A stretch of 12,082 nucleotides of DNA, taken from an archaeon (GTDB lineage Archaea > Asgardarchaeota > Heimdallarchaeia > Heimdallarchaeales > Kariarchaeaceae). The notes under the pieces are model-generated. The model had not been told where the DNA came from. It worked only from the letters and a program-made list of their open reading frames with translations, and made no database searches. The stretch lies in the NCBI GenBank assembly GCA_024280435.1, contig JAJRQD010000151.1, positions 1 to 12,082 of the forward strand. Direction: 5' to 3'. A program made the translations under genes and the position numbers. Of this stretch, positions 1 to 12,082 are shown one piece after another (within the stretch, counting starts at the first letter, position 1; every line of letters starts with the position of its first letter).

Positions 1-144
1 GTGGTTTATGATCAGGCTGGAGCTATTGGAAAGAGATATGCAAGAAATGATGAGGTTGGGATACTCTATGCCGTCACAGTGGATTACGATACATTAGAAT
101 CTGAGACTGTGACACTGAGAGATAGAGATACCACTGAACAGTAA
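1..144 (+). CDS. glyS: Glycine--tRNA ligase (eukaryote/archaeal alpha2-type), C-terminal anticodon-binding domain; 5'-partial, continues upstream of the window
   Basis: Frame 1 translates to [47 protein letters not shown], with the stop at 142-144. This matches the conserved GlyRS C-terminal 'IGRRYARTDEIG...TVDFDT...T(L/V)RDRDS' signature. The ORF runs off the 5' edge. Confidence 0.7.
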
Positions 145-306
145 GACTTCACAAGGAGGCACTACCCACAATTCTTCAGGAATTGATCATGCAGGTATCT
201 AATTGGAATGATATCAAAGAGGAATTTGGATTAATTCAGGATAATAAACCAGCTAAATCAAAAACCAAGAAAAAAGGTAACAGTAAATAGTGAATTTAGA
301 AAGCCT

Positions 307-358
307 AGAGGTGTAACCTCTTATAATATATAATTTAAAGTGAATTTATAAAAACAAA
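307..358 (-). terminator. Possible terminator region after TatD: an oligo-T tract plus a 6-bp-stem hairpin, potentially bidirectional with the + strand glyS transcript
   Basis: On the - strand, immediately after the TatD stop (359-361), comes 'TTTGTTTTTATAAATTCAC...'. Archaeal termination is typically at oligo-dT runs. A hairpin 'agaggt-gta-acctct' lies at 307-321. Confidence 0.3.
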
Positions 359-1123
359 TTATATTCTGTAGAAGTTTTTGGTATTATTAGTGGTTATTCT
401 GGCAAGCTCTTCCAATTCCACCTCGAATATACTCGCTAATTTTTCAGCTACAATAGGAATGGTTGAGGGTGTATTTGGTCTGATATCATCTGCTGGTGCA
501 CAGTATGGACTATCCGTCTCGAGTAATATATTCTCGATACCTGCGCGAACAGCTACTTTTCTTCTATTTCTTCTGATAACCACATTTGTGGGCACTGTAA
601 TCTTGTATTCCAGTTCTTTGGCAAATTCAACTGCTTTTAGATTCCCCTCAAATGAATGTAGAAGTACAGGTACTTGTGCATGTTTTGATAGAATTTCAAG
701 TGCATCCATCTCTGCCTTTCTTGAGTGAATAACCAATGGTATCTGTTGTTCATTGGCCAATTCAATACAATCAATAAACAATACTTTCTGTCTATCTCTC
801 AGGTTCTCATCTTTTATCCAGTGATAATCTAGGCCTACCTCTCCTATTGCACGGATATTTTTTGATAATGGATTATCACTCAGTTCTCGTATAGGATCTG
901 CATTGATTATTCTATCTGCAAGAGTTGGCTGTAATCCAATTGATATCTCGATTTCATCGAATTTAGAGGTTTCTAGACAATTATTGAATTGAGAAGGATC
1001 ACTGGCACAATTAACTATTTTGATTACATCTTTTGATAAAGCATCTGTGATAACATTTTTTACCTCATTTAATTTGAAAAAAGGTTCTAATATATGTGCA
1101 TGTGCATCTATATACCTGATCAA
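359..1123 (-). CDS. tatD: TatD-family metal-dependent hydrolase / DNase
   Basis: 254 aa. The hallmark TatD motifs are present: N-terminal 'IDAHAHI' (HxH metal site), 'IGEVGLDYH', 'PLVIHSRKA', 'LLHSFEG' and 'LETDSPYCAP'. The start codon on the - strand is TTG (1123-1121), 10 bp after the GTPase stop. Confidence 0.85.
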   Translation of the reverse strand: MIRYIDAHAHILEPFFKLNEVKNVITDALSKDVIKIVNCASDPSQFNNCLETSKFDEIEISIGLQPTLADRIINADPIRELSDNPLSKNIRAIGEVGLDYHWIKDENLRDRQKVLFIDCIELANEQQIPLVIHSRKAEMDALEILSKHAQVPVLLHSFEGNLKAVEFAKELEYKITVPTNVVIRRNRRKVAVRAGIENILLETDSPYCAPADDIRPNTPSTIPIVAEKLASIFEVELEELARITTNNTKNFYRI

Positions 1124-1132
1124 TTTAAAAAC

Positions 1133-1756
1133 CTAAACATCTAGCCATTTCAGGATCTCATTTCCAAGTGATTCAAAAGCCATCTCTATATTCAATCCTG
1201 TAAGTGCTGAAGTATTGTAATAATGTATTTTGAATCGATTATCTCCATACTTCTCTCTTAATATATCGAGTTTTCTCTCTATCTCCTCATCATTCACAAC
1301 TAGATCTGCACCTTCTACAAGATCAAATTTATTACCAAGCAGAATTATTGGAACAATACCTTTTCCAGAATATTTTTTCAATTCCTCTAACCAGTTATCA
1401 ATATTTTCAAAAGAAGTGGGTCTTGTTTTGTCAAAAACAACAACTCCTCCAAAACAACCTTTGTAATACATGGAGCGTACATTATGGAAACTATCCTGTC
1501 CAGCTAGATCCCATATCTGCCATGTGATCTTGTAATCTTTCTCATCAATCTTTATGGATGCATCATGTGCTGCGAAATCAGCTCCAATAGTCATTAAATG
1601 GTCACCGGTAAATCCCTGACCCATATAATTTCTACGAATAGATGTCTTGCCCACTGCACCATCGCCTAATAGTGCAATTTTAAGAAAATATGAATTATTT
1701 GTGATCTTAGGTTTGATTTTTGGCTTACTTTTTGATTGCTTTTTCTTCCAAAACAT
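1133..1756 (-). CDS. Ras-superfamily small GTPase, Rab-like, with an N-terminal polybasic extension
   Basis: 207 aa. G1 'GDGAVGKTS', switch I 'TIGADF' (Rab-like TIGxDF), G3 'WDLAGQD', 'YYKGCFGGVVVFD' (Rab YYRGA-like), G4 'GNKFDL' (NKxD) and G5 'TSALTG' are all present. The N-terminal 23 aa 'MFWKKKQSKSKPKIKPKITNN' is polybasic. There is no C-terminal Cys/CaaX. ATG start at 1756-1754. Confidence 0.85.
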   Translation of the reverse strand: MFWKKKQSKSKPKIKPKITNNSYFLKIALLGDGAVGKTSIRRNYMGQGFTGDHLMTIGADFAAHDASIKIDEKDYKITWQIWDLAGQDSFHNVRSMYYKGCFGGVVVFDKTRPTSFENIDNWLEELKKYSGKGIVPIILLGNKFDLVEGADLVVNDEEIERKLDILREKYGDNRFKIHYYNTSALTGLNIEMAFESLGNEILKWLDV

Positions 1757-1860
1757 TCTATATTCATAACAATCCCTTAATATAATATAAATTATGTGGT
1801 TTGATTTGTTAAAGATAAGAATAATTTGGAATTTCTACATTTATAATTCTAACATTATCC

Positions 1861-1894
1861 ATATAGAAAATATGTATATAGAAAATATGTATAG
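1861..1894. repeat. 15-bp tandem direct repeat (x2.3) in the promoter-proximal intergenic region upstream of the GTPase-TatD operon
   Basis: 'atatagaaaatatgt' at 1861-1875 and 1876-1890, then 'atag'. It lies about 105-140 bp upstream of the - strand GTPase ATG at 1756. Confidence 0.7.
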
Positions 1895-1980
1895 ACTGAT
1901 TCTCGTATAGTGAAGATATATCATTCACATTTCAGATATTATATAATTGCATTATTTTGCACAGGAAAAGTAAGATTGAT

Positions 1981-2445
1981 TTAAGTGTGATCAGTCACTA
2001 TATACTTCAATACATTATTAATAGCGCTATCAAAAGTTGGATCTATCTGCAGTGCTTTTTCAAAATAAATTCTAGCAGTATCTATCTCTTTTTTATCCAC
2101 TGAAATCAATCCTAGCTGATTGAATACAAATTTATTCACCACAGGATGATTTTTTATCTTATCAAATTCATTTATTGCTTTTTCTAGATTATTTGTTAAT
2201 TTGTAAATCAAAGCTTTATCATATAGTGCATAGATATACTCTGGATTGATACTCAGTACCTCATCAAGTGCAATGATCGCAAGATCATATTGTTCAATTT
2301 TTCTCAGAATAAATGCCTTACCATAAATCATATCTATATTTTCAGGATATATTCCAAGGGCTTCCCTATACAACTTCAATGCCTCATCTATCTTCCCATT
2401 CATGATAAGTTTTGCACTCTCATTGATATAATCCTGTTCATTCAT
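1981..2445 (-). CDS. Tetratricopeptide-repeat (TPR) protein
   Basis: 154 aa. It contains tandem ~34-aa repeats with the TPR-like pattern of small/aromatic residues (e.g. 'ALKLYREALGIYPENIDMIYGKAFIL', 'AIIALDEVLSINPEYIYALYDKALIY', 'ARIYFEKALQIDPTFDSAINN'). ATG start at 2445. Confidence 0.75.
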   Translation of the reverse strand: MNEQDYINESAKLIMNGKIDEALKLYREALGIYPENIDMIYGKAFILRKIEQYDLAIIALDEVLSINPEYIYALYDKALIYKLTNNLEKAINEFDKIKNHPVVNKFVFNQLGLISVDKKEIDTARIYFEKALQIDPTFDSAINNVLKYIVTDHT

Positions 2446-2667
2446 GATTTATTAAATCATTGTGCTTAAGATAAATATTTATTTGAGAACAAGTTATAAG
2501 GTGCGAATAAGATATATTTTATACCAATATATATTGATTAATTCACAAAAAATCAATTTCTTTATTTTTTAGTTTAAGAAATTAGGATAAATAACAAGAA
2601 TAATAAAGTCCATACTCAATATTTAATAATATCATAGAATACAAAAAGATAAGGTTATTTCTAAATT

Positions 2668-3357
2668 ATGAAGTGTGAGAATTGCAATGCGGTATTTGTC
2701 CGTTCTCCTTGCCCTGATTGTGGTTGGGAAGTCAAGAAAGAAAGCTCAGAACAGCGTGAAGAGGTAATGGTCAAACCATCTATGCTCAAGGGTGGATCTG
2801 CTGTGAACCCACAGAAATTTCAGGATGAGAAAGAGGAGGAAGAGAGGCTTAGAAAACCATCTGAAATGTTCAAAAAAGAGGTAACTGATGAGGCAGAACA
2901 TCTGGTCAAACCATCTCAACTCAAAGCCAAAAATGAGGCAAGTATGAAGAAGACAGATAAGGAAATATCTTCTGAGACAGATAATAATGAGGAGAGTTTA
3001 CGAAAACCCTCTGAGATGTTCAAAAAAGAGGTAAATGATGAGACAGAACATCTGGTCAAACCATCTCAGATCGGAGATACAATCAATACAAGAAAGATTG
3101 AAAGAAAAATAGAGAAACCAAAACCTGTTATCTCGGGAGATCATGGAGAGAAGTTATTACGTCCGTCTGAACTATCTGGTACTTCAGGTAGAAATAAAAT
3201 ATCTCATAGGGATAAAGTGATGGTAAGCACTGTTAAATCAGGTCTTAATTCTCTTGATAAAAAGATAAGTCATTCTGAGGATACAGAGTTCAAATCAAAT
3301 GTCAAGGATACATTACTAGAAGTAATATCACTACTTGAGAAACTAATTGAAGAATAG
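2668..3357 (+). CDS. Zinc-ribbon protein with a charged, repetitive, probably disordered body carrying six 'h-h-K/R-P-S-x-h' motifs; function unknown
   Basis: 229 aa. The N-terminus 'CENC...CPDC' is a C4 zinc ribbon. The body is K/E-rich and includes an exact 50-aa internal duplication (LRKPSEMFKKEV[TN]DE[AT]EHLVKPSQ) that is visible as a ~70-bp DNA direct repeat. The motif variants are VMVKPSML, RLRKPSEMF, HLVKPSQL, SLRKPSEMF, HLVKPSQI and KLLRPSEL. ATG start at 2668. Confidence 0.7.
   Translation: MKCENCNAVFVRSPCPDCGWEVKKESSEQREEVMVKPSMLKGGSAVNPQKFQDEKEEEERLRKPSEMFKKEVTDEAEHLVKPSQLKAKNEASMKKTDKEISSETDNNEESLRKPSEMFKKEVNDETEHLVKPSQIGDTINTRKIERKIEKPKPVISGDHGEKLLRPSELSGTSGRNKISHRDKVMVSTVKSGLNSLDKKISHSEDTEFKSNVKDTLLEVISLLEKLIEE
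2851..3070 (+). repeat. Two copies of a ~70-bp direct repeat spaced 150 bp apart inside a CDS (50-aa protein duplication)
   Basis: Positions 2851-2920 and 3001-3070 are near-identical ('agaaaaccatctgaaatgttcaaaaaagaggtaactgatgaggcagaacatctggtcaaaccatctcaac' versus 'cgaaaaccctctgagatgttcaaaaaagaggtaaatgatgagacagaacatctggtcaaaccatctcaga'). Confidence 0.85.
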
Positions 3358-3459
3358 CTTATTTTACAAATAGTAATTTACTTTATACTTTCTAGAAAAT
3401 TGATTTACAAATTATTTTAATATACAATAAATTAAAAATATATTTTTTTTATTCGCAGT

Positions 3460-4140
3460 ATGCGAAAAGAATACATCGGTGCAATCATTATTTCAATTGT
3501 AATTATTGCATTCGTGGTATATCAGAGCTCAGATGAAGACGATACAATTAATGAGACATTTACACTACTGAATGGTCAAACTGCAACCCTATCTGATTAT
3601 GAAGGTAAGGGTTTATTGATAGATGCTATGGCATCTTGGTGTGAGCCTTGTAAAATAGAGATGGTGCATTTATATGATATATATCAAGAACTTGGTGATC
3701 AGATAGAGATACTATCAATAAGCGTTAGCCCTTCTACTGATGATGCCCAGACAATCAATGATTTCAAATCAGAAGTTGAACAGGATAATAATCTGATATT
3801 TACATGGGATTTCGCAATTGATAACAATCTGTATATTCAGGAAAAATACTCAATATCAACAATTCCTACGCTGATCTATCTTGATAGCAATGGCACAGAG
3901 GTAAAATCATGGGTGGGTGTTGTGGAAGCATCAGAGATAATCAATACAATCAATTCAAATTATACATCTGGTGAATCAGTTGATAATAATAATATTCTAA
4001 TAGATAGTTTAATCAAAAATCCTGCATTTCAACTATTTATCGGTGCTTTTGTCATTTTTATTATCTATTCAAAATTAGTACCGAAAAAACGATCAGAGAT
4101 AGAACAATCAGAGATAGAACAATCAGAGATGAATGAATAA
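3460..4140 (+). CDS. Membrane-anchored thioredoxin-fold thiol-disulfide oxidoreductase (TlpA/ResA-like), with N- and C-terminal TM segments
   Basis: 226 aa. The N-terminal TM is 'IGAIIISIVIIAFVVY'. The catalytic motif 'WCEPC' sits in a thioredoxin-like context ('LIDAMASWCEPCKIEM'). A C-terminal hydrophobic segment 'FQLFIGAFVIFIIYSKLV' is followed by 'PKKR' and a (SEIEQ)x2.5 tail. Confidence 0.7.
   Translation: MRKEYIGAIIISIVIIAFVVYQSSDEDDTINETFTLLNGQTATLSDYEGKGLLIDAMASWCEPCKIEMVHLYDIYQELGDQIEILSISVSPSTDDAQTINDFKSEVEQDNNLIFTWDFAIDNNLYIQEKYSISTIPTLIYLDSNGTEVKSWVGVVEASEIINTINSNYTSGESVDNNNILIDSLIKNPAFQLFIGAFVIFIIYSKLVPKKRSEIEQSEIEQSEMNE
4093..4131 (+). repeat. 15-bp in-frame tandem repeat (x2.6) encoding SEIEQ at the C-terminus of the thioredoxin-like protein
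   Basis: 'tcagagatagaacaa' at 4093-4107 and 4108-4122, then 'tcagagatg'. Confidence 0.85.
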
Positions 4141-4245
4141 TTGTAGAATAATCAAAGAACAATCATGAAGAATAGTTATAATTGTACTAAATTTAGCTAT
4201 TTTTTCATTCAATTTAATCTGAATTGTGAATTATATAATGTCTAT

Positions 4246-4257
4246 ACTTATAATATT
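4246..4257 (+). promoter_or_regulatory. Candidate TATA box for the SPFH gene (short-leader or leaderless transcript)
   Basis: 'acttataatatt' lies 23-34 nt upstream of the ATG at 4280, preceded by an A-rich BRE-like stretch. Confidence 0.3.
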
Positions 4258-4279
4258 GATTGTATCTTAGAAAATTAAC

Positions 4280-5053
4280 ATGGCATTGAATGAATTTATT
4301 TCAATTGGATTTGCCCTTCTTTTTATCATACTTATCCTCGGATTCAGGAAAGTCAATGAGTATGAAAGGGCGATAAATTTTAGACTAGGACGATTCACAT
4401 CCATAAAAGGGCCTAGAGTTTTCTGGATAATTCCTTTTATAGACAAAATTGTAGTTGTAGATCTGCGTGTTCAGGTAATCGATATTCCTAAACAAGAAGC
4501 TATCACCAAAGATAACGTACCGGCATTCATCAATGCAGTAGTATTCTACTCAATTGTTGATCCTGCCAAAGCAATTATTAAAGTACAGAACTATAGGTTT
4601 GCGATCATGCAACTGGCCCAAACCACACTAAGATCTGCAGTGGGTGAAGTAGAGTTAGATGAGCTATTATCAAACAGGGAAAAAGTAAACACTCACATAT
4701 TGGAAGTACTTGATGAGGCAACCGATGCATGGGGTATCGACTGCAAAAGGGTAGAGATCAAGGATCTTGAATTACCAGAGAATATGAAACGTGCTATGGC
4801 TAAGCAGGCTGAAAGTGAACGTGAGCGAAGATCAAGAATAATTCTTGCAGAGGGTGAGATGCAGGCATCATCTAAGTTGGCTGAGGCTTCGAAGATCATG
4901 GCTGAATCAGGTGGAATTTATTTGAGATTGCTTCAGACAATCCAGGAGATCTCTCAAGAGAATACATCAACTGTGATTTTACCATTCCCCGCAGATTTAA
5001 CCGGCTTATCTGGTAATATGATTGAGTCTATAAAGAGCAGTATGAAAAAATAG
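4280..5053 (+). CDS. SPFH/band-7 family protein (stomatin/prohibitin-like)
   Basis: 257 aa. It has an N-terminal TM ('ISIGFALLFIILILGF') and then the characteristic 'EYERAINFRLGRF...GPRVFWIIPFIDKIVVVDLRVQVIDIP...ITKDNVPAFINAVVFY' SPFH core. The C-terminal coiled-coil-like segment is E/R-rich ('AKQAESERERRSRIILAEGE'). Confidence 0.85.
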   Translation: MALNEFISIGFALLFIILILGFRKVNEYERAINFRLGRFTSIKGPRVFWIIPFIDKIVVVDLRVQVIDIPKQEAITKDNVPAFINAVVFYSIVDPAKAIIKVQNYRFAIMQLAQTTLRSAVGEVELDELLSNREKVNTHILEVLDEATDAWGIDCKRVEIKDLELPENMKRAMAKQAESERERRSRIILAEGEMQASSKLAEASKIMAESGGIYLRLLQTIQEISQENTSTVILPFPADLTGLSGNMIESIKSSMKK

Positions 5054-5172
5054 AATTGATTAGTAACAATCGTCAATTTCATCAAATGTATTAATCAATA
5101 TCAGTGCAAAAAAATTGAGATAATATTACATAAGTAAAAAATATAATCAAAGTTTTGTATAGTTCGGAATGA

Positions 5173-5182
5173 ATTTTTATAC
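5173..5182 (+). promoter_or_regulatory. Candidate TATA box for the zinc-ribbon/TM2 gene
   Basis: 'atttttatac' lies 23-32 nt upstream of the ATG at 5205. Confidence 0.3.
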
Positions 5183-5204
5183 TTAAAATTTCAATAATGA
5201 TTTA

Positions 5205-5756
5205 ATGACAAATGTCTATTGTTCAGAATGTGGGACTTCAAATGATGAGAATGCAGGTTTCTGTGGAAATTGTGGTACTAAAATTGAAGCACCAAAGACT
5301 CAGATAAATTCTACTGTACCTGCTAAAGCACCATCTAAGCAGGGTTATCAGCAACCACAGGGTTATCAGCAACCACAGGGTTATCAGCAACCACAGCAGG
5401 GTTATCAGCAACCACAGCAGGGTTATCAACAACCACAGCAGGGTTATCAACAACCACAGCAGGGTTATGTGCAACCTGGTTATGTACAACCAGGATTTCA
5501 ACAACCTATGGGTAGACCTGGAATACCGGGATATCAGATACCAAGGAAAGATCCCTCAGTTGGCTATATTGGGGCACTATTTATCCCTGGATTTGCACAT
5601 TTTTATACTGATAATGTTGGCACTGGAATTGTCTTATTATTGATAACTATTTTCACATATGCGATTGTAATTGGATTGATTATTCATTTTGTTCAATTTT
5701 TAATGGCCGGAGATCGAGTAAAATATTACAATAGATTGAATGGCTATCCACAATAA
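5205..5756 (+). CDS. Zinc-ribbon / Q-Y-P-rich low-complexity linker / C-terminal TM2-domain (two-TM) protein
   Basis: 183 aa. The N-terminus 'CSECG...CGNCG' is a C4 zinc ribbon. The middle is (QGYQQPQ)n with about 9 repeats. The C-terminus 'GALFIPGFAHFYTDNVGTGIVLLLITIF...IVIGLIIHFVQFLMAGDRV' matches the TM2-domain pattern (G-x-H-x-FY...G-I-L-LL, a second TM helix, then a conserved D). Confidence 0.65.
   Translation: MTNVYCSECGTSNDENAGFCGNCGTKIEAPKTQINSTVPAKAPSKQGYQQPQGYQQPQGYQQPQQGYQQPQQGYQQPQQGYQQPQQGYVQPGYVQPGFQQPMGRPGIPGYQIPRKDPSVGYIGALFIPGFAHFYTDNVGTGIVLLLITIFTYAIVIGLIIHFVQFLMAGDRVKYYNRLNGYPQ
5341..5505 (+). repeat. In-frame 18/21-bp coding tandem repeat encoding (Q)QGYQQP
   Basis: 'cagggttatcagcaacca' occurs 3 times, then 'cagcagggttatca(g/a)caacca' 4 times, followed by degenerate 'ggttatgt(g/a)caacc' units. 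The - strand ORF at 5238-5504 ('LLITLLWLL...') is the mirror artifact of this repeat. Confidence 0.9.
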
Positions 5757-5825
5757 TTAAATATTAATAGAAAATTATTAAATTGCCTACTGAATGCATA
5801 ATTATACTAAAGTCAAATAGAATTA

Positions 5826-6476
5826 TTAGACATTATTAATAAAATACCTCATCTGTCTGATACTTGTTGGAAATAGTCTGCCTACATTTCTCTGATATTC
5901 CTTATATGTATCAAAAAACTCAGCTAATTTCTTTTCCTCATAGTATGTACCAATGAGAAAATAACCACCTGCTCCAATTATCCATGATAATGAATTTTCA
6001 GAGACCTCTACAAATAATGTGGCTATAAATATAATTATTGCTCCGAGATATACTGGATGTCTTGAGAAAGAATATATGCCAGAGGTATTCAGTGGTTCCT
6101 CTTCTTTGGTTATGCCAATAAATCCAAGTAAATCCCATTTCAATAATCCCAATATTGCAATAATAGTGCCTATTACTAGCCCTGTTAAGAAAAATATCAG
6201 ATATATTCCCTCTAATCTCAGTCCTTTTACTATCAGATCTCCAATCCCCGGTACATTGTAAGAGGTTACCATGAATGTAATTATTGCAATAATATTGTAT
6301 AAAACTCTGTATGTTTTCGCTCCAATCGGGATTCTATTCTTTATTGAAATAGATGTGGTGAGTGAATGAATGATACCAAAAAAGCCCCACCATAAAATAT
6401 ACATGATCAATAATGCCCAGTTCATATATATTAGATCAAAGATAAAAACATAAAGTTTGTTATGATTGAAATTCAA
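5826..6476 (-). CDS. Isoprenylcysteine carboxyl methyltransferase (ICMT)/phospholipid methyltransferase-family integral membrane methyltransferase
   Basis: The C-terminal signature is 'SRHPVYLGAIIIF...GTYYEEKKLAEFFDTYKEYQRNVGRLFP', matching the ICMT-family RHPxY...EE..L..FG..Y..Y...V.R..P motif, within a 5-6 TM helix protein. The ORF-track start at 6476 is TTG. The more likely true start is the in-frame ATG at 6425 ('MNWALLIMYILWW...', about 199 aa). Confidence 0.75.
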   Translation of the reverse strand: MNFNHNKLYVFIFDLIYMNWALLIMYILWWGFFGIIHSLTTSISIKNRIPIGAKTYRVLYNIIAIITFMVTSYNVPGIGDLIVKGLRLEGIYLIFFLTGLVIGTIIAILGLLKWDLLGFIGITKEEEPLNTSGIYSFSRHPVYLGAIIIFIATLFVEVSENSLSWIIGAGGYFLIGTYYEEKKLAEFFDTYKEYQRNVGRLFPTSIRQMRYFINNV

Positions 6477-6686
6477 ATATTATAAGAGGTGGTATTTTGA
6501 TTATTATCTGTACGTATTTTAAGTTGTGAAATTAATTTCATGCTCCGGTTATTGAATGTGTTTTAATATTCTGGGGCTACTATTCCCATTAATATATTTA
6601 TCTCCACAGCTATTGCACCTGTATAATCCTCTGTTTACCTTTATTATAGGTCCACAGTATGTATGTGAGGCGTAGCTCACATCTTA

Positions 6687-7793
6687 TTACTCTTTAAATG
6701 CTTCAATAATTGATTTGAGATAATACAAAGAGCCATAGGCAATCATCAGGAAATTAATAGTCAAATATATCAGTGAAGATAGTATGAGAATACCTGATAG
6801 CATTACTGGTAGTATAATCATTGCAATCAGATAATATTTGATCATATTGAGATCATAATACTCTTTATTTGCCTTTGTGACATTCCTGTACACATAGTTA
6901 GATCTGTGAAATGCATAAATTGTCAGTCCATATATGGTAAATACAATGATATATGGTAAAGCAATGTTTGGAAGTAATGATGCTTTGTTTAAGAAAAGAC
7001 CAATAAGATAGTATATAACCAATAGAACAGTCAATATTTTGAAATTTCTATCTGAAAGTTTGAGATCATAGATGGATAGTTTTGTCTTATTATCAATACT
7101 TTTTCGATTTATAATACTGATCAGTATCAATATGATCAACCAATTTGCCATGATTGCAATTACTGCACTCAGTATCTGTGTACCAAGAATGACTCCAAGA
7201 ACTGCAGAGGGCCACAGTACCACAAATAAGAACAAAATCACTGTTTTTAGACTATCTTTCTCGAAGTACTTTATATGATTTGGCAGGATTGTGTTAATAT
7301 CTTTTGACATTGTATATGCATAAATTTCTACGATCATTATTGGTAAAATAAAAGAGAATACTGGATGAAAGAAGAATACAAGTGTCAAAGTCTCAAAAAT
7401 AGCAATTCCACCTATTTTTCCCCAGAATACATCTGAAGAGTATCCATTGAATACAACTTTTGTTATCCATGCCTCGTATAAACCGAAAAGTACACCTAAT
7501 AGGTACAAATGCTTGAAATCTGTTTTTTTGTATCTCAGAGCAATATTAATGAAAAATAAAGATTGTAGTATGAAGTTTGGAAAAGAAAATAATATATCGC
7601 CGATATTCAAAAACCAGAGAGGCGATGCATATGTCATCACCTGTCCAAAATACATGGATATAGTTCCAAATAACAGTAAAATCAATATTATCAGTGAATT
7701 ATTCTTATTTTTATCAGTCATATTTCTTTCAAGAATTAATAGAATATTATTCTTATTCATTTTGAAAAAAAAAATTGGAAAGCAATTTAACAA
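6687..7793 (-). CDS. Polytopic integral membrane protein (about 10 TM helices), family unknown; immediately downstream of the ABC exporter genes
   Basis: 368-aa ORF that is extremely hydrophobic, with about 10 predicted TM segments and no motif I recognise. The ORF-track start at 7793 is TTG. In-frame ATGs at 7760 and 7721 are alternative starts. There is a 65-bp gap to the upstream ABC gene on the same strand, so it may be co-transcribed. The strongly AT-skewed composition means shadow ORFs appear on the + strand. Confidence 0.55.
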   Translation of the reverse strand: MLNCFPIFFFKMNKNNILLILERNMTDKNKNNSLIILILLLFGTISMYFGQVMTYASPLWFLNIGDILFSFPNFILQSLFFINIALRYKKTDFKHLYLLGVLFGLYEAWITKVVFNGYSSDVFWGKIGGIAIFETLTLVFFFHPVFSFILPIMIVEIYAYTMSKDINTILPNHIKYFEKDSLKTVILFLFVVLWPSAVLGVILGTQILSAVIAIMANWLIILILISIINRKSIDNKTKLSIYDLKLSDRNFKILTVLLVIYYLIGLFLNKASLLPNIALPYIIVFTIYGLTIYAFHRSNYVYRNVTKANKEYYDLNMIKYYLIAMIILPVMLSGILILSSLIYLTINFLMIAYGSLYYLKSIIEAFKE

Positions 7794-7858
7794 TTAAATG
7801 CGAATACAATAATTCTGTACTTCAAATTTTTACCTCTATGATTTTGTATTACAAATTT

Positions 7859-9880
7859 TTAATTTTTTATATCTGAGATGCCTTGATGTGCATAATAAGT
7901 ATTGTACAGTTCAAAATACTTACCTTTTAATCTCATCAATTCATCATGAGTGCCCTGTTCTACAATTGAGCCATCATCCATCACAATTATCTGATCTACA
8001 TCTCTAATAGTGGATAATCTGTGTGCAATAATCACAGTAGTTCTGCCCTCAAATAATTTATTCTGGGCTTCCTGTACAAGGCTCTCCGTGAATGCATCCA
8101 ACCTGCTTGTGGCCTCATCTAGAATAAGTATCTTGGGATCACGTATCATAGTTCTTGCAATAGTTATCATCTGCCTCTGACCTGCCGATAATGATTTACC
8201 CGATTCTATCAATTTAGTCTCATATCCATCTGGTAGTGCCTCTATAAACTGATCTGCACCAAGCATCTCACATATTTTGTATACCTGCTCATCAGATACA
8301 TCTTGATTACCATATTTGATATTATCAACCACAGAGCCAACAAAAAGATAAGGTTCCTGCGATACAAGGCTAATTGTATCATACAGTGATTCAAGTGTTA
8401 TTTCTCTCAAATCCTGCCCATCAATCATGATGGAGCCATCCTTTGGATCATAGAAACGTAATAATAGTTTTGTGATGGTGGTTTTACCTGCTCCTGTATG
8501 TCCAACTATGGCTGTCTTTTTTCCTGCAGGAATAGTGAATGATACATTTTTCAATACAATCGTTTCATTTCTATCTTCAGAATTACCCATCATCCTAGCT
8601 TTCATATTAGCTTTCATCTTAGCTTGCATCTCTGCTTGCATCTTAGCTTTCATCTCTGCTTTCATCTTAGCGTCCATATCAGGCTTCATATTAGCTTTCA
8701 TCTTAGCTTGCATCTCTGCTTGCATCTTAGCATTCATCTTACCCCTCATATCAGGCTTCACTGCACCATTCATTCTCTTTTTACCACTATAAGCAAATGA
8801 TATATTATCCACCTGTATCTCTCCTTCTGAGAATCCAAGAGGCCTTGCATCAGGACTATTTTTCACAGAGGGCCGAGATTCAAGTACATCTGTAACTCTA
8901 TCAAGAGCTGCCAATGATGCCTGGAAATTAGTTATATTATTTGATAATGCCATTATTGGAGATAAGAACCTTCTAACCATAATTGTACCCAGATAAATTG
9001 CACCCAATGTGATTATCCCCGCCTCATTAAGATAACCACCTACAAGTAATACACCCATTATCATGAGCATACTCACAAGCGTAATTGATGGAAAAATCAT
9101 AGTGAACAGAAAGCCCAATTGTTTGAAATAGCCAAAAGTTTCATCATTCAGCTTTCTGATCTCCTCACTGGTTCTATCTTCTTGATTGAATGATTTGGCA
9201 ATTGCCACCCCATTAAGATTCTCTGCTAACTTACCCGATACCTTGCCCATAGATGATCTTACCTCCAACATCTTCTGTTTACCTCTAGATGCAATTATCT
9301 TTGTAATTCCAAATGCAGTTGGCAATGCTAACAATGAGATCAAGCCAAACCATATGGAGATAGAAAATAATACTATCAATGTAGTCAGAGCAACCAATAG
9401 ATTCGTCAGCGTAGTGGTAAACACTGCAAGCCCATTGGTAATCTCCTGTGTATCACCAATCACTCTTGAAGTAACATCTCCTGATTGATTTGTGGCATGA
9501 TAATTCATATCTGCTTTTACTAGTCCCTCAAAAGTGGCTGTTCTTAATGAATGCACCAGCCTATTGGATACAATACTCATAAACCACGTATTTGCTGATT
9601 GAGCCATCCATGATAATATAGATAGTGCAAAATATATGATTACAAGTGTTGTTATCGCATCAAATTTATCTCCAACTAGTAACTGATCTATTGCTTTCTC
9701 AACTATCAATGGCTGTGCTGTAACTGCTGCTGTGTAGAACAGAGTTAACAATGCAATCAGAATAAGATAGCCTGTAAATGGCTTCAAGTATTGCCATAGT
9801 ATTTTTAACAGTATTTTGAAAGACCGGGTACGTTTATTATCCGAAAGCATACTGGAATGTCTGCTACCAGGTCTACTCAT
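7859..9880 (-). CDS. ABC exporter half-transporter (TMD-NBD, type IV/ABCB-like) with a canonical ATPase site, carrying a Met/Lys-rich repeat insertion in the NBD
   Basis: 673 aa with an N-terminal 6-TM domain. Walker A 'GHTGAGKTT', Q-loop 'SQEP', Walker B+E 'ILILDEATSRLD' and H-loop 'IIAHRLSTI' are canonical. The signature is divergent ('LSAGQRQMITIARTM'). About 65 extra residues lie between NBD strands beta1 and beta2, including (KAKM)-type tetrapeptide repeats. The ATG start overlaps the stop of the upstream ABC gene (ATGA at 9877-9880), and a GGAGGA Shine-Dalgarno sits 8 nt upstream. Confidence 0.85.
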   Translation of the reverse strand: MSRPGSRHSSMLSDNKRTRSFKILLKILWQYLKPFTGYLILIALLTLFYTAAVTAQPLIVEKAIDQLLVGDKFDAITTLVIIYFALSILSWMAQSANTWFMSIVSNRLVHSLRTATFEGLVKADMNYHATNQSGDVTSRVIGDTQEITNGLAVFTTTLTNLLVALTTLIVLFSISIWFGLISLLALPTAFGITKIIASRGKQKMLEVRSSMGKVSGKLAENLNGVAIAKSFNQEDRTSEEIRKLNDETFGYFKQLGFLFTMIFPSITLVSMLMIMGVLLVGGYLNEAGIITLGAIYLGTIMVRRFLSPIMALSNNITNFQASLAALDRVTDVLESRPSVKNSPDARPLGFSEGEIQVDNISFAYSGKKRMNGAVKPDMRGKMNAKMQAEMQAKMKANMKPDMDAKMKAEMKAKMQAEMQAKMKANMKARMMGNSEDRNETIVLKNVSFTIPAGKKTAIVGHTGAGKTTITKLLLRFYDPKDGSIMIDGQDLREITLESLYDTISLVSQEPYLFVGSVVDNIKYGNQDVSDEQVYKICEMLGADQFIEALPDGYETKLIESGKSLSAGQRQMITIARTMIRDPKILILDEATSRLDAFTESLVQEAQNKLFEGRTTVIIAHRLSTIRDVDQIIVMDDGSIVEQGTHDELMRLKGKYFELYNTYYAHQGISDIKN
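8575..8770 (-). repeat. In-frame 12-bp coding minisatellite (14 units, + strand 'cat-ytt-agc-ttt' = KAKM on the coding strand), with an 84-bp higher-order duplication
   Basis: Read on the + strand, the units are 'catcctagcttt catattagcttt catcttagcttg catctctgcttg catcttagcttt catctctgcttt catcttagcgtc catatcaggctt catattagcttt catcttagcttg catctctgcttg catcttagcatt catcttacccct catatcaggctt'. Units 2-4 equal units 9-11 exactly. The encoded peptide is 'MRGKMNAKMQAEMQAKMKANMKPDMDAKMKAEMKAKMQAEMQAKMKANMKARMM'. Confidence 0.9.
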
Positions 9881-11664
9881 TGTTCGATTCCTCCTGCAAT
9901 GATCTGCTCAGATTCAGGTAATAACTCGAATATCTTTCTATAAGATTGGCACCTTGCAAGTAGTTCTTTATGTGTGCCATGATCAAGTATCTCTCCTTTG
10001 TGCAATAATATAACCATATCCGCCTTTACCAGTGTATTCAATCTCTGAGTAACTGTGATTGTCAATCTATCCCTGCTCAGATTATCTAATGCAAGCCTTA
10101 ACAATGCTTCAGTCTTGGAATCAAGAGCAGATGCGCTATCATCAAGTAATAATATCTTTGGATCTGCAAGAATTGCTCTGGCAATTGCCAATCTCTGTTT
10201 CTGGCCACCAGATATATCCACTCCTCGCTCTCCTATCACAGTATGTATACCATTGGGTAATTTCTCAATGAACTCAAATGCCTGTGCAGCTTTTGCAGCC
10301 TCAATTATCTCCTCATCTGTTGCCTCTACTTTTGCGAAGCCAATATTATCCCTGATTTTTCCAGAGAATAGAAATATTTCCTGCTCGACACGTGATACAT
10401 TCTTTCTCACCTCTCTCGCAGATATATCCTTATAGTTGATACCTGATATTTTTATTGCACCCTCAGTGCTCAGATACAGCTGTAATAATAGCTTCAAAAA
10501 TGTGGACTTACCCGATCCTGGACCACCAATCAGGGCGATTTTACTATTTGCAGGTATGGTCAGATTGATATTCTTCAATGCAGGTCTCTTATCACTGCCA
10601 TAATTGAATGTTACATTATCAAATACAATATCGCCTTCCCAATTCACTTCTGGCTCATTCTCAATTATTTTATCCGGCACAGGATCTATCCAGTTCATCT
10701 TCTCCCATATTCTGTTGGCATTAGTCAGTGCCGCATTAATCATAAGAAACATATTGGGAAGCATCAGGCTGGATAACTGAATTGTCAATAACAGCCCAAT
10801 TACCTGTAGCATAGCTCCTAGACTGATTGTACCATTTGTTACATCAATTAGTGTGAGTGCGAATAATACAGCTGTAAGTACCAGCATGATTAGATTTGGC
10901 ATATAGAAAGCCGACATTTGTCCTTCAGTTTTTGCCAATTCTGCATATTCAGAACTAGTTTTTCTGAATTTTTGCACCTCTCTTCTGGTGGATTTTAGTG
11001 ATCTGACCACTTCGATTCCCTGGAATATCTCCTGCGATTCCTCAGTCAATGATCCTACTGTATTTGCAAGCTTTTCTCTGATAGGAATAATCTTCTTGGA
11101 TTGCCATATGGCTATAATGTAGTATAAAATAAATCCTGATAGTGCAATTACAGTTTTATACAGATCTGTTGCTCTGTAGATGAAGAATAATGCAAATGCA
11201 AGTTGGAATATATTCTGGAAAATACCTCTGGCAGCAGGCATAATTCCTGTACGTAGTTGGCTGATCTCAGTCATTCCTGTTGCCAACAATTTAGATGAGT
11301 TATTCTCATCATGAAATGTCAGGCTGTGTTTCTGTATTCTATCAAAATATTCTTGCCTAATATCTCGTTCGTATGAGAATGCCAGCGTCATATAGGTGTA
11401 GAATGCATAGAATGTGACAATATAGTACAGTACTCCAACGGCAAGTATTTTCAGTGTTTCTGATATGAATGCCTGCCCTAATCCCTCTTCTCTCAGAATA
11501 TCTATGGAACTTCCCACAAAAATAGCAGGAAGTAGCATTCCAAGTGATGAGATCAGCATTGCAATCACACTGATGAATAATTTTAGTCGGCTTCTTTTTA
11601 TGAATGAAAAAAATAAAGCGTTGCCTGAGCTGTAAAGTTTTTTATTGTTATCCAATTGAATCAC
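9877..11664 (-). CDS. ABC exporter half-transporter (TMD-NBD) with a degenerate, non-catalytic-type NBD; heterodimer partner of the downstream subunit
   Basis: 595 aa with 6 TM helices. Walker A 'GGPGSGKST' and signature 'ISGGQKQRLAIARA' are canonical. The Walker B catalytic Glu is replaced by Asp ('ILLLDDSASALD', codon at 10138-10140). The H-loop His is replaced by Gln ('TITVTQRLNT', codon at 10045-10047). The start codon is GTG at 11664-11662. Confidence 0.85.
   Translation of the reverse strand: MIQLDNNKKLYSSGNALFFSFIKRSRLKLFISVIAMLISSLGMLLPAIFVGSSIDILREEGLGQAFISETLKILAVGVLYYIVTFYAFYTYMTLAFSYERDIRQEYFDRIQKHSLTFHDENNSSKLLATGMTEISQLRTGIMPAARGIFQNIFQLAFALFFIYRATDLYKTVIALSGFILYYIIAIWQSKKIIPIREKLANTVGSLTEESQEIFQGIEVVRSLKSTRREVQKFRKTSSEYAELAKTEGQMSAFYMPNLIMLVLTAVLFALTLIDVTNGTISLGAMLQVIGLLLTIQLSSLMLPNMFLMINAALTNANRIWEKMNWIDPVPDKIIENEPEVNWEGDIVFDNVTFNYGSDKRPALKNINLTIPANSKIALIGGPGSGKSTFLKLLLQLYLSTEGAIKISGINYKDISAREVRKNVSRVEQEIFLFSGKIRDNIGFAKVEATDEEIIEAAKAAQAFEFIEKLPNGIHTVIGERGVDISGGQKQRLAIARAILADPKILLLDDSASALDSKTEALLRLALDNLSRDRLTITVTQRLNTLVKADMVILLHKGEILDHGTHKELLARCQSYRKIFELLPESEQIIAGGIEQ
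9889..9894 (-). promoter_or_regulatory. Shine-Dalgarno (GGAGGA) for the second ABC gene, consistent with translational coupling inside the operon
   Basis: The + strand 'tcctcc' at 9889-9894 reads GGAGGA on the - strand, 8 nt upstream of the ATG at 9880. The upstream gene's TGA overlaps that ATG. Confidence 0.5.
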
Positions 11665-11693
11665 TTCTCAATATTTGAAGTAAATGATTTTTG

Positions 11694-11710
11694 TTTTTTA
11701 AATATATTTA
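11694..11710 (-). promoter_or_regulatory. Candidate archaeal TATA/BRE region for the ABC operon
   Basis: The + strand 'ttttttaaatatattta' reads 'TAAATATATTTAAAAAA' on the - strand, about 30-46 nt upstream of the GTG start at 11664. The placement fits a short-leader or leaderless archaeal promoter. It is sequence-only and unverified. Confidence 0.3.
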
Positions 11711-12065
11711 ATTAGGATATTACTGTAATGCTGTTAAGATTGATATCTAATACACGAATTTCACTATTCTCTCTTATCAAAATTTAGTTGTACTTGTCTA
11801 TTATACTTGTCTATTATACTTGCCTATTATATTATAATTATATTTAATTAGGATACTACTGTAATGCTGTTAAGATTGATATCTAATACACGAATTCCAC
11901 TATTCTCTCTTATCAAAATTTAGTTGTACTTGTCTATTATACTTGTCTATTATATTCTAATTATATTTAATTAGGATACTACTGTAATGCTGTTAAGATT
12001 GATATCTAATACACGAATTCCACTATTCTCTCTTATCAAAATTTAGTTGGACTTGCCTATTATAT
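11705..12065. repeat. Noncoding tandem array: 3 copies of a 123-136-bp unit with a nested 13-bp sub-repeat present in 3, 2 and about 1 copies
   Basis: Units begin at 11705, 11841 and 11964 ('tatttaattaggata(t/c)tactgtaatgctgttaagattgatatctaatacacgaatt(t/c)cactattctctcttatcaaaatttagttgtacttgtctattat...'). The unit length difference (136 versus 123) equals one extra copy of 'acttgtctattat'. The third copy degenerates into unique flank ('...ttggacttgcctattatatgctaaaaaaatgcatca'). Each unit carries a TATA-like 'ttatatttaatt'. Confidence 0.9.
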
Positions 12066-12082
12066 GCTAAAAAAATGCATCA

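Follow-up and report, generated by a model that had tools for sequence, protein, structure and literature searches.

A minisatellite-encoded, methionine-rich insertion at the β1-β2 hairpin of an ABC exporter nucleotide-binding domain in an Asgard archaeon

To our knowledge, insertions at the β1-β2 hairpin of the nucleotide-binding domain (NBD) in ABC (ATP-binding cassette) proteins have so far been discussed mainly for CFTR. NBD1 of CFTR carries a mobile insertion (residues 404-435) between β1 and β2 and a C-terminal extension (residues 639-670), and in the isolated domain both are placed to hinder NBD dimerization (PMC2217481). Here we describe a 75-residue insert at the tip of this hairpin in an ABC exporter of an archaeon of the Kariarchaeaceae (Asgardarchaeota, Heimdallarchaeia; assembly GCA_024280435.1, contig JAJRQD010000151.1). 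The window is the whole stretch of DNA that was analyzed, positions 1 to 12,082 of this contig (12,082 nucleotides, nt). The exporter is like TM287/288 and TmrAB (3qf4, 5mkk) in its adjacent gene pair, in its combination of a degenerate and a consensus ATP site and in its overall predicted fold; in their best-matching chains, however, nothing lies opposite residues 368-436 of the query, and TM288 picks up at β2 (query residue 441).

The insert is real and in frame, an appendage that derives from a minisatellite and sits at the β1-β2 hairpin tip. Such an insertion in an ABC exporter NBD had been proposed in a first-pass annotation of the window, and it is confirmed by translation, Pfam and Tandem Repeats Finder (TRF). 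The elements of the insert-bearing gene are the following.

7859..9880, minus strand: ABC half-transporter gene (transmembrane domain plus NBD), 673 amino acids (aa), carrier of the insert (open reading frame (ORF) list, Pfam, phmmer, Foldseek, motifs)
8789..8818, minus strand: β1 of the NBD, IQVDNISFAY (translation; predicted strand 355-364)
8561..8785, minus strand: insert of 75 residues (aa 366-440), placed where the β1-β2 hairpin has its tip (translation, PDB alignment)
8591..8758, minus strand: core array of 14 head-to-tail 12-nt units, aa 375-430 (TRF, repeat search, unit table)
8685..8731, minus strand: perfect 47-nt higher-order duplicate, upstream copy in gene sense (offset 84 nt, or 7 units)
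8601..8647, minus strand: the same higher-order duplicate, downstream copy in gene sense (matches 8685-8731)
8675..8686, minus strand: second KPDM unit, with Pro-Asp at the predicted break between two helices
8531..8560, minus strand: β2 of the NBD, IVLKNVSFTI; from here the sequence is again homologous to that of other ABC NBDs
8480..8503, minus strand: Walker A motif (GHTGAGKT) of the consensus ATP site, 19 residues past the start of β2

The inserted sequence (aa 366-440, between IQVDNISFAYS and IVLKNVSFTI) reads GKKRMNGAVKPDMRGKMNAKMQAEMQAKMKANMKPDMDAKMKAEMKAKMQAEMQAKMKANMKARMMGNSEDRNET. An extra segment of about 65 residues had been annotated; the segment is real and its size is larger, at 75 residues, 69 of which (query residues 368-436) have no counterpart in the structures of ABCB1 and ABCB4, where the PDB alignment leaves a gap between YSGK and RNETIVL. 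With 16 Met and 15 Lys among the 75 residues, the insert consists of 21% Met and 20% Lys, whereas these residues make up 3.2% and 5.2% of the protein outside it. Met occupies every fourth position from residue 378 to residue 430, with M370 and M431 in addition, so that the spacing MxxxM is repeated 13-14 times in a row; the earlier count of 15 Met in 54 aa is right for residues 378-431. The insert contains no His and no Cys, the array holds no Ser or Thr (S434 and T440 lie only at the edge), and the net charge is +10.

At the DNA level, the units of the array have the consensus AAAGCTAAGATG, which encodes K-A-K-M, and ATG ends each of the 14. The shorthand (KAKM)14 of the first-pass annotation thus has the right number of units and the right position of Met, but KAKM is the consensus only: there are 10 distinct units among the 14, and exactly one reads KAKM. 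TRF reports a period of 12, 12.7 copies and 77% matches. The higher-order duplication of 84 bp that had been noted is seen as the 47-nt perfect duplicate. A KPDM unit identical to that at 8675-8686 lies at 8747-8758; the two are 72 nt apart, so that the higher-order duplication must have been followed by the gain or loss of one unit. Chance cannot produce a tandem array of this kind. Two other uses of the repeat DNA were considered and rejected: translation from the internal ATGs of the array would give a product without β1 and the A-loop, and an antisense ORF of 106 aa that spans the repeat (8472..8792, plus strand) is a by-product of the periodic sequence with no evidence of a gene.

The insert-bearing gene is preceded by that of a second half-transporter.

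9877..11664, minus strand: partner half-transporter gene, 595 aa, TM287-like, with degenerate Walker B (ILLLDDS) and H-loop (VTQRL)

The stop of the partner gene and the start of the insert-bearing gene overlap by 4 nt. Both ORFs are matched by PF00664 (ABC_membrane) and PF00005 (ABC_tran), with 2.5e-30 and 8.9e-33, respectively, for the insert-bearing one, while no NCBIfam model reached its cut-off for the exporter. Among PDB entries, phmmer matches the insert-bearing subunit to TM_0288 (3qf4_B, 5e-101) and the partner to TM287 (3qf4_A, 2e-71), and Foldseek places TmrA and TM288 at the head of the structural matches to the AlphaFold model of the insert-bearing subunit (TMt 0.70-0.78; 5mkk_A, E=3e-41; 4q4h_B, TMt 0.78). 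The motifs are shared by all six loci compared, namely the window and five related ones. The partner has GGPGSGKS, LLLDDS and VTQRL, with the catalytic Glu replaced by Asp and the H-loop His by Gln; the insert-bearing subunit has GHTGAGKT, LDEA, IAHRL and the signature LSAGQ or LSSGQ, and in the window its Walker B (ILILDEA) and H-loop (IAHRL) follow the consensus. Judged by these sequences, the pair is a TM287/288-type heterodimeric ABC exporter with one consensus and one degenerate ATP site, and the insert is carried by the subunit predicted to supply the hydrolytic site, immediately after Y364, the A-loop aromatic residue, which is invariant across the family alignment. The adjacent, co-oriented pair recurs in loci L081, L082, L088 and L169-L171, and the partner subunits in related loci (579-614 aa) are without an appendage.

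To place the insert in its family, we compared the best 120 of 1,755 homologue hits, of which 118 could be parsed for loop and tail. The named ones bear Heimdall-, Hod-, Kari-, Thor-, Odin-, Hermod- or Promethearchaeota labels, with one exception (Methanobacteriota). A C-terminal tail was scored when it had at least 25 aa.

Loop-insert class: 17 proteins, loop of 29-96 aa, no tail of at least 25 aa
Tail class: 85 proteins, loop of 3-4 aa, tail of at least 25 aa
Neither: 16 proteins, loop of 3-4 aa, tail shorter than 25 aa
Both loop insert and tail: 0 proteins of the 118

The canonical β1-β2 loop thus has 3-4 residues in the 101 homologues that lack an insert. Met makes up 11.4% of the tails and 9.0% of the loops, compared to 3.0% of the cores; the tails also contain 8% Pro and 12% Glu and show motifs such as MPEEMRKK, G-x-x-PE-x-MHAMMKER and GMGGGGM, while the loops contain 24% Lys plus Arg. 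The most Met-dense 40-residue stretch is the appendage in each of the six loci (86 ORFs), and the appendage is always on the consensus-site subunit (6/6 loci). In a neighbour-joining tree of the cores, proteins P0001-P0016 form a single clade in which all 16 carry an insert of at least 29 aa, whereas P0018, with a 72-aa insert, groups with the insert-less P0017, P0019 and P0026 in the sister group. Orthologues without the insert, for which a check had been suggested, therefore exist in these three and others, and the insert is no peculiarity of the window protein: 16/16 clade members and P0018 carry one at the site.

The appendages evolve much faster than the cores. Loop identity is 58-66% at 88-96% core identity, and the loops become unalignable below about 83% core identity; tail identity is 37-83% at 79-93% core identity. 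P0008 carries tandem repeats peculiar to its insert, of 24 nt and 21 nt (KGKQMAGM, MTEMKSR), and the insert of P0018 has traces of 15-nt and 9-nt repeats, while neither P0002 nor the tails of P0058 and P0084 contain tandem repeats at the DNA level. Because the repeat units of P0008 and P0018 differ, Met/Lys-rich expansions at the hairpin arose more than once. The array of the window is probably the latest remodelling of an appendage that the clade keeps at the same site, 29-96 aa long, always basic and often Met-rich, and most other Asgard orthologues appear to carry theirs on the same subunit but C-terminally, as Met-rich short-helix repeats. NBD appendages rich in Met are thus found throughout this family of Asgard exporters, and a literature search turned up no account of such appendages, either on ABC NBDs or in Asgard proteins. 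As a separate observation, a Kariarchaeaceae-type subgroup (P0020, P0022, P0025, P0030, P0033, P0043, P0049) has an extra, folded-looking C-terminal domain of about 160 aa without a Pfam match, which holds a Met/His/Gly-rich loop, e.g. ARMKKMQGHGGPHGGSQGGPHGHM; a suspected likeness to GHKL ATPases was not confirmed.

How unusual such a loop is was gauged on 198 distinct exporter NBDs by a motif-anchored loop measurement; the background loci came partly from a scan of genome contigs with generic ABC motifs (80 loci, mostly of unrelated bacteria). The loop has 3-9 residues in 177 of the 198, in agreement with the earlier statement that fewer than 10 residues are normal. Within this sample, inserts of at least 59 aa occur in the Asgard clade only, and inserts of 12-37 aa occur at the same hairpin tip in unrelated bacterial exporters (L048, L025, L003, L095/L096, L047). 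The bacterial inserts, whose carriers include metagenome-assembled genomes (MAGs) of Solirubrobacterales and Dormibacteraeota, are Pro/Ala/Arg- or Ser/Glu-rich and not Met-rich.

The AlphaFold2 model of the window protein (53-sequence alignment; mean predicted local distance difference test, pLDDT, 83.7) shows the insert as two helices, residues 377-397 and 404-431 (pLDDT 73-86), split at K399-P-D and flanked by tethers 368-375 and 432-437 with pLDDT below 50. The insert is made up of residues that rank with the strongest helix formers, namely Ala, Met, Lys, Glu and Gln. An amphipathic helical appendage had been suggested, and the prediction agrees with the helical part of this idea. The hydrophobic moment of the helices is only 0.1-0.2 at 100 degrees, so they are not amphipathic as α-helices; it reaches 2.6-2.7 at 180 degrees because polar and apolar residues strictly alternate. 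Examined as a possible single α-helix, the insert has 10 opposite-charge vs. 6 same-charge i/i+4 pairs, and Pro-Asp interrupts the helix. A membrane-binding amphipathic helix is ruled out by the near-zero moment together with the short tethers. In the model of P0058, the tail is a 37-residue disordered linker followed by four 10-residue helices.

Searches for a related module elsewhere gave little. When the insert, the inserts of two orthologues and seven C-terminal extensions were scanned, Pfam returned nothing above cut-off apart from a short 2-oxogl_dehyd_N match on one tail, and it did not confirm a suspected likeness of the tails to STI1/DP repeats. A full HMMER scan with the insert against 1.84 billion representatives gave 77 matches. 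Every one is a generic Ala/Glu/Lys/Arg repeat of period 4/8 in an unrelated protein, and the ten that were checked included no ABC transporter. These repeats (EARLKAEE, KAELKAEM, GANMRAYM) share with the insert the four-residue periodicity, the helix-forming composition and the i/i+4 charge pairs, but mostly have Leu, Val or Ile rather than Met at the periodic position. The matches reflect composition and not homology. A word-indexed search found one weak repeat protein with the insert and nothing with the tail, both being weak negatives since the source proteins themselves were not recovered. The searches thus point to no homologous module elsewhere.

We tentatively favour, at a little less than an even chance, the hypothesis that the insert is a selectively retained, helix-prone, Met-studded basic arm that tunes NBD closure or recruits a partner and that is equivalent to the Met-rich C-terminal tails. 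Slipped-strand or unequal-recombination expansion of a 12-nt unit, as the array anatomy suggests, would have been followed by the 84-nt (7-unit) duplication and then by divergence at every codon position but the ATG. The product would be an arm of positive charge, held next to the catalytic ATP site by short and flexible tethers. It might touch the interface of the NBD dimer, or else a partner or ligand, in a pliable manner and with low specificity, and these contacts could tune NBD closure and ATPase activity. Selection would then act on presence, length and composition rather than on sequence, and CFTR NBD1, with its non-conserved insertion and extension, might have an archaeal counterpart in the arm. 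Two observations speak for selection. The insert has at least 29 aa in all of P0001-P0016 despite rapid turnover by insertions and deletions (indels), which argues for retention by selection. Within the array, none of the 42 ATG positions varies, whereas the other nine positions of the units show 27 differences from the consensus in 126, mostly non-synonymous; counting only distinct units or distinct variants, the ATG invariance has P ~0.006-0.03. The repeated origin of Met/Lys-rich expansions, the Met-rich appendages of the wider family, their constant place on the consensus-site subunit, the predicted helices on tethers and the CFTR precedent also favour the arm.

Several findings weigh against an arm of this kind. 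The confidence that AlphaFold assigns to a low-complexity helix without covariation is weak evidence. By the background comparison, the hairpin tip is a generally permissive site, and the window's insert is the extreme case. The loops are unalignable at moderate core divergence, as weakly constrained sequence would be. P0017, P0019 and P0026 carry neither appendage and are presumably functional, and the mutual exclusion of loop and tail represents only one or two evolutionary events. Met is absent from the loops of P0009, P0010 and P0012 and amounts to 3% in P0013 and 1% in P0016, and therefore it is not required in the clade. Finally, CFTR from which most of the insertion had been removed was largely normally regulated, with shortened open bursts (PMC2217481).

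A broader form of the hypothesis is that Met-rich appendages are a conserved functional module of Asgard-specific heterodimeric ABCB-like exporters, placed at the C-terminus or re-invented at the hairpin by a minisatellite, and serving as a tethered regulatory element or one that senses a ligand or partner (redox, metal or client). We regard this as possible but rather doubtful; the (xAxM)14 array of the window would then be the youngest form. Should the arm be functional, it would be the first prokaryotic regulatory-type insertion at the β1-β2 hairpin of an ABC NBD and part of a lineage-wide, undescribed Met-rich module on Asgard exporters, and the case would show how slippage in a minisatellite can restore, at a different place, an appendage that a protein had lost.

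A neutral, tolerated expansion is the main rival and a serious one; in it, slippage would have acted in a permissive surface hairpin and produced a segment with no function and with the composition of whichever unit happened to be amplified. The inserts in unrelated exporters, the very fast turnover of loop sequence and length, the Met-poor loops of some clade members, the close relatives without any appendage and the lack of a matching known domain or of a homologous module elsewhere are all as expected from it. Even so, indels are frequent and yet none of the 17 insert-bearing proteins has regained a short loop, the ATG stays constant where the other codons have diverged, independent Met/Lys-rich expansions used units of different length, and Met-rich, moderately conserved tails occur on the same subunit across Asgard lineages. 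On this balance we think that neutrality is a possible account, if an unlikely one. If it holds, the insert is a clean illustration of how permissive the hairpin tip is, which would be useful for engineering tags into ABC NBDs.

A function in capturing clients or substrates is improbable. The arm would bind hydrophobic peptides or lipidic cargo and feed the exporter, on the model of the "methionine bristles" of the SRP54 M-domain or Get3. The high Met density on flexible, helix-prone modules, in loops and tails alike, would suit such a role, and the PadR neighbours of orthologues, presumably similar to LmrR/LmrCD, fit hydrophobic substrates. However, the predicted helices lack a hydrophobic face (moment 0.1-0.2 at 100 degrees) and the insert has a net charge of +10, the tethers have only ~6-8 residues, Met-poor loops exist in the clade, and the structures of type IV exporters place the NBD a long way from where the substrate enters.

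Less probable still is a Cu(I)/Ag(I)-binding motif, in which the MxxxM ladder would chelate soft metal ions for sensing or for handing them to the exporter. In favour of this earlier idea is the spacing, with its run of 13-14 repeats. Met motifs of copper proteins (MxxxM of Ctr1, Mets motifs, CueO, PcoC, CopC) are found outside the cytoplasm or in a membrane pore, usually together with His; they share clustered Met and MxxxM with the insert, which by the topology of ABC exporters lies in a cytosolic NBD, has 0 His and 0 Cys and has no copper genes nearby. Some orthologue tails have Met/His/Gly-rich stretches that may resemble segments of periplasmic copper proteins. No copA, copZ, csoR or multicopper-oxidase gene was found in the window, L081, L082 or L169-L171, and the exporter matched no metal-transporter family. 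A review places copper carriers and chaperones of the Met/His type, among them CusF, CopC and CueO, in the periplasm (PMC7558416).

A contingency locus, whose unit number shifts between strains and diversifies the protein, had also been suggested, and we consider it very improbable. A tandem array with a 47-nt perfect internal duplicate could recombine. Nevertheless, a second assembly (GCA_024278115.1, contig JAJRTV010000355.1), reached via P0121, the second member of a 90%-identity protein cluster, matches the window over 5,255 nt with 99.77% identity, 12 mismatches and 0 gaps, and none of the mismatches falls in the array; the two proteins agree in 672/673 residues. The array is thus reproducible and identical between only two genomes, and a scan of metagenome contigs for further close relatives of the locus found none. 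Length variation between strains is not seen in these assemblies despite the 12 single-nucleotide differences elsewhere, nor in the sister species, whose proteins P0002-P0007 all have 658 aa, P0002 alone being carried by 18 contigs from many sequencing runs. Moreover, the units are only 77% alike (10 distinct of 14), and a 12-nt unit, as a multiple of 3, cannot switch the frame. An assembly artefact can be dismissed: repeats in contigs of short-read MAGs can be mis-assembled or collapsed, as the first-pass annotation had cautioned, but an independent assembly matches the 168-nt array base for base with zero gaps, the array is imperfect and shorter than typical read pairs and can be assembled, the reading frame is kept, and orthologues carry inserts at the same site.

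The surroundings of the exporter genes yielded further observations. Directly downstream of the insert-bearing gene, on the same strand, lies a gene for a 368-aa polytopic membrane protein (6687..7793, minus strand) without a Pfam or NCBIfam match; it is found in the second assembly, and the other orthologous loci have no call of similar size there. Three lineages have, downstream of the ABC pair, a membrane methyltransferase of ICMT/PEMT-like type (5826..6476, minus strand; L169 10079-10684; L170 13059-13682), with weak NCBIfam matches to methanethiol S-methyltransferase MddA and isoprenylcysteine O-methyltransferase; its place beside the ABC pair recalls, as an idea only, the pairing of Ste14 (ICMT) with the ABCB exporter Ste6 in yeast. 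PadR-family regulators lie directly upstream of tail-bearing orthologous pairs (L170 5445-6044; L171 5623-6159), that of L171 being co-oriented with and overlapping the first ABC gene, while the window contig stops short of the equivalent position; we take this arrangement to be like that of the LmrR/LmrCD drug efflux pump. Synteny links the window to the nearest named locus, L169 (Heimdallarchaeota). Besides the thioredoxin-like, Band_7 and ABC genes, it takes in a small GTPase of the Ras/Arf family, which is Lys-rich at its N-terminus and lacks a C-terminal CAAX box (1133..1756, minus strand; L169 194-790).

Repeats also occur elsewhere in the window. A second in-frame minisatellite (5338-5476, in ORF 5205..5756, plus strand; 21 nt, 6.9 copies, 93% matches) gives a membrane protein with a zinc ribbon its (Q)QGYQQP repeats; in the sister species, too, a zinc-ribbon gene flanks the ABC pair (L082). 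A third in-frame repeat (4088-4130, in ORF 3460..4140, plus strand; 15 nt, 2.9 copies) accounts for the C-terminal SEIEQ repeats of a thioredoxin-like protein that is anchored in the membrane and has a CEPC motif and a weak, sub-threshold SCO1/SenC match. Between the start of the partner gene and the contig end, 11722-12064 holds ~2.7 direct copies of a 123-nt unit that are 97% identical, each with 2-3 copies of the 13-nt sub-repeat TACTTGTCTATTA (plus strand). These repeats are kept in the second assembly and also occur at L088 1-280; they may serve as repeats of an operator or promoter, or may form a small mobile element. Scans of the window for Rfam families and tRNAs were empty, and the 123-nt repeats have no Rfam match.

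The closest relatives of the insert in kind are the Met-rich C-terminal tails of its own orthogroup, which occur in proteins labelled Heimdall-, Hod-, Thor-, Odin-, Hermod- and Promethearchaeota. They are on the same consensus-site subunit, are enriched ~4-fold in Met, are K/R/E-rich and, like the insert, are predicted to form short helices on a disordered tether. In contrast to the insert, they consist of Pro/Gly-punctuated units of ~14 residues (G-x-x-P-E-x-M-x-A-M-M-K-E-R), have no DNA-level tandem repeats and are more conserved than the loops.

Among described systems, CFTR NBD1 offers the best comparison. It and the Asgard family have appendages at the same two sites, the β1-β2 hairpin and the C-terminus of the NBD. 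In CFTR, the insertion and the extension are non-conserved, mobile, near the NBD dimer interface in the isolated domain and dispensable for core function, and the insertion modulates the stability of the dimerized state. The insertion of CFTR belongs to the NBD with a share in the degenerate site; it has ~32 aa, is neither repetitive nor Met-rich, has a PKA site and is without sequence homology to the Asgard insert. The latter, in contrast, has 75 aa, is encoded by a minisatellite, contains 21% Met and 20% Lys and lies on the consensus-site NBD. CFTR, moreover, has both appendages together, whereas the loop and tail forms of the Asgard family are found in separate orthologues. By this comparison, the Asgard insert would be an analogue of the regulatory insertion of CFTR and not a member of the same class.

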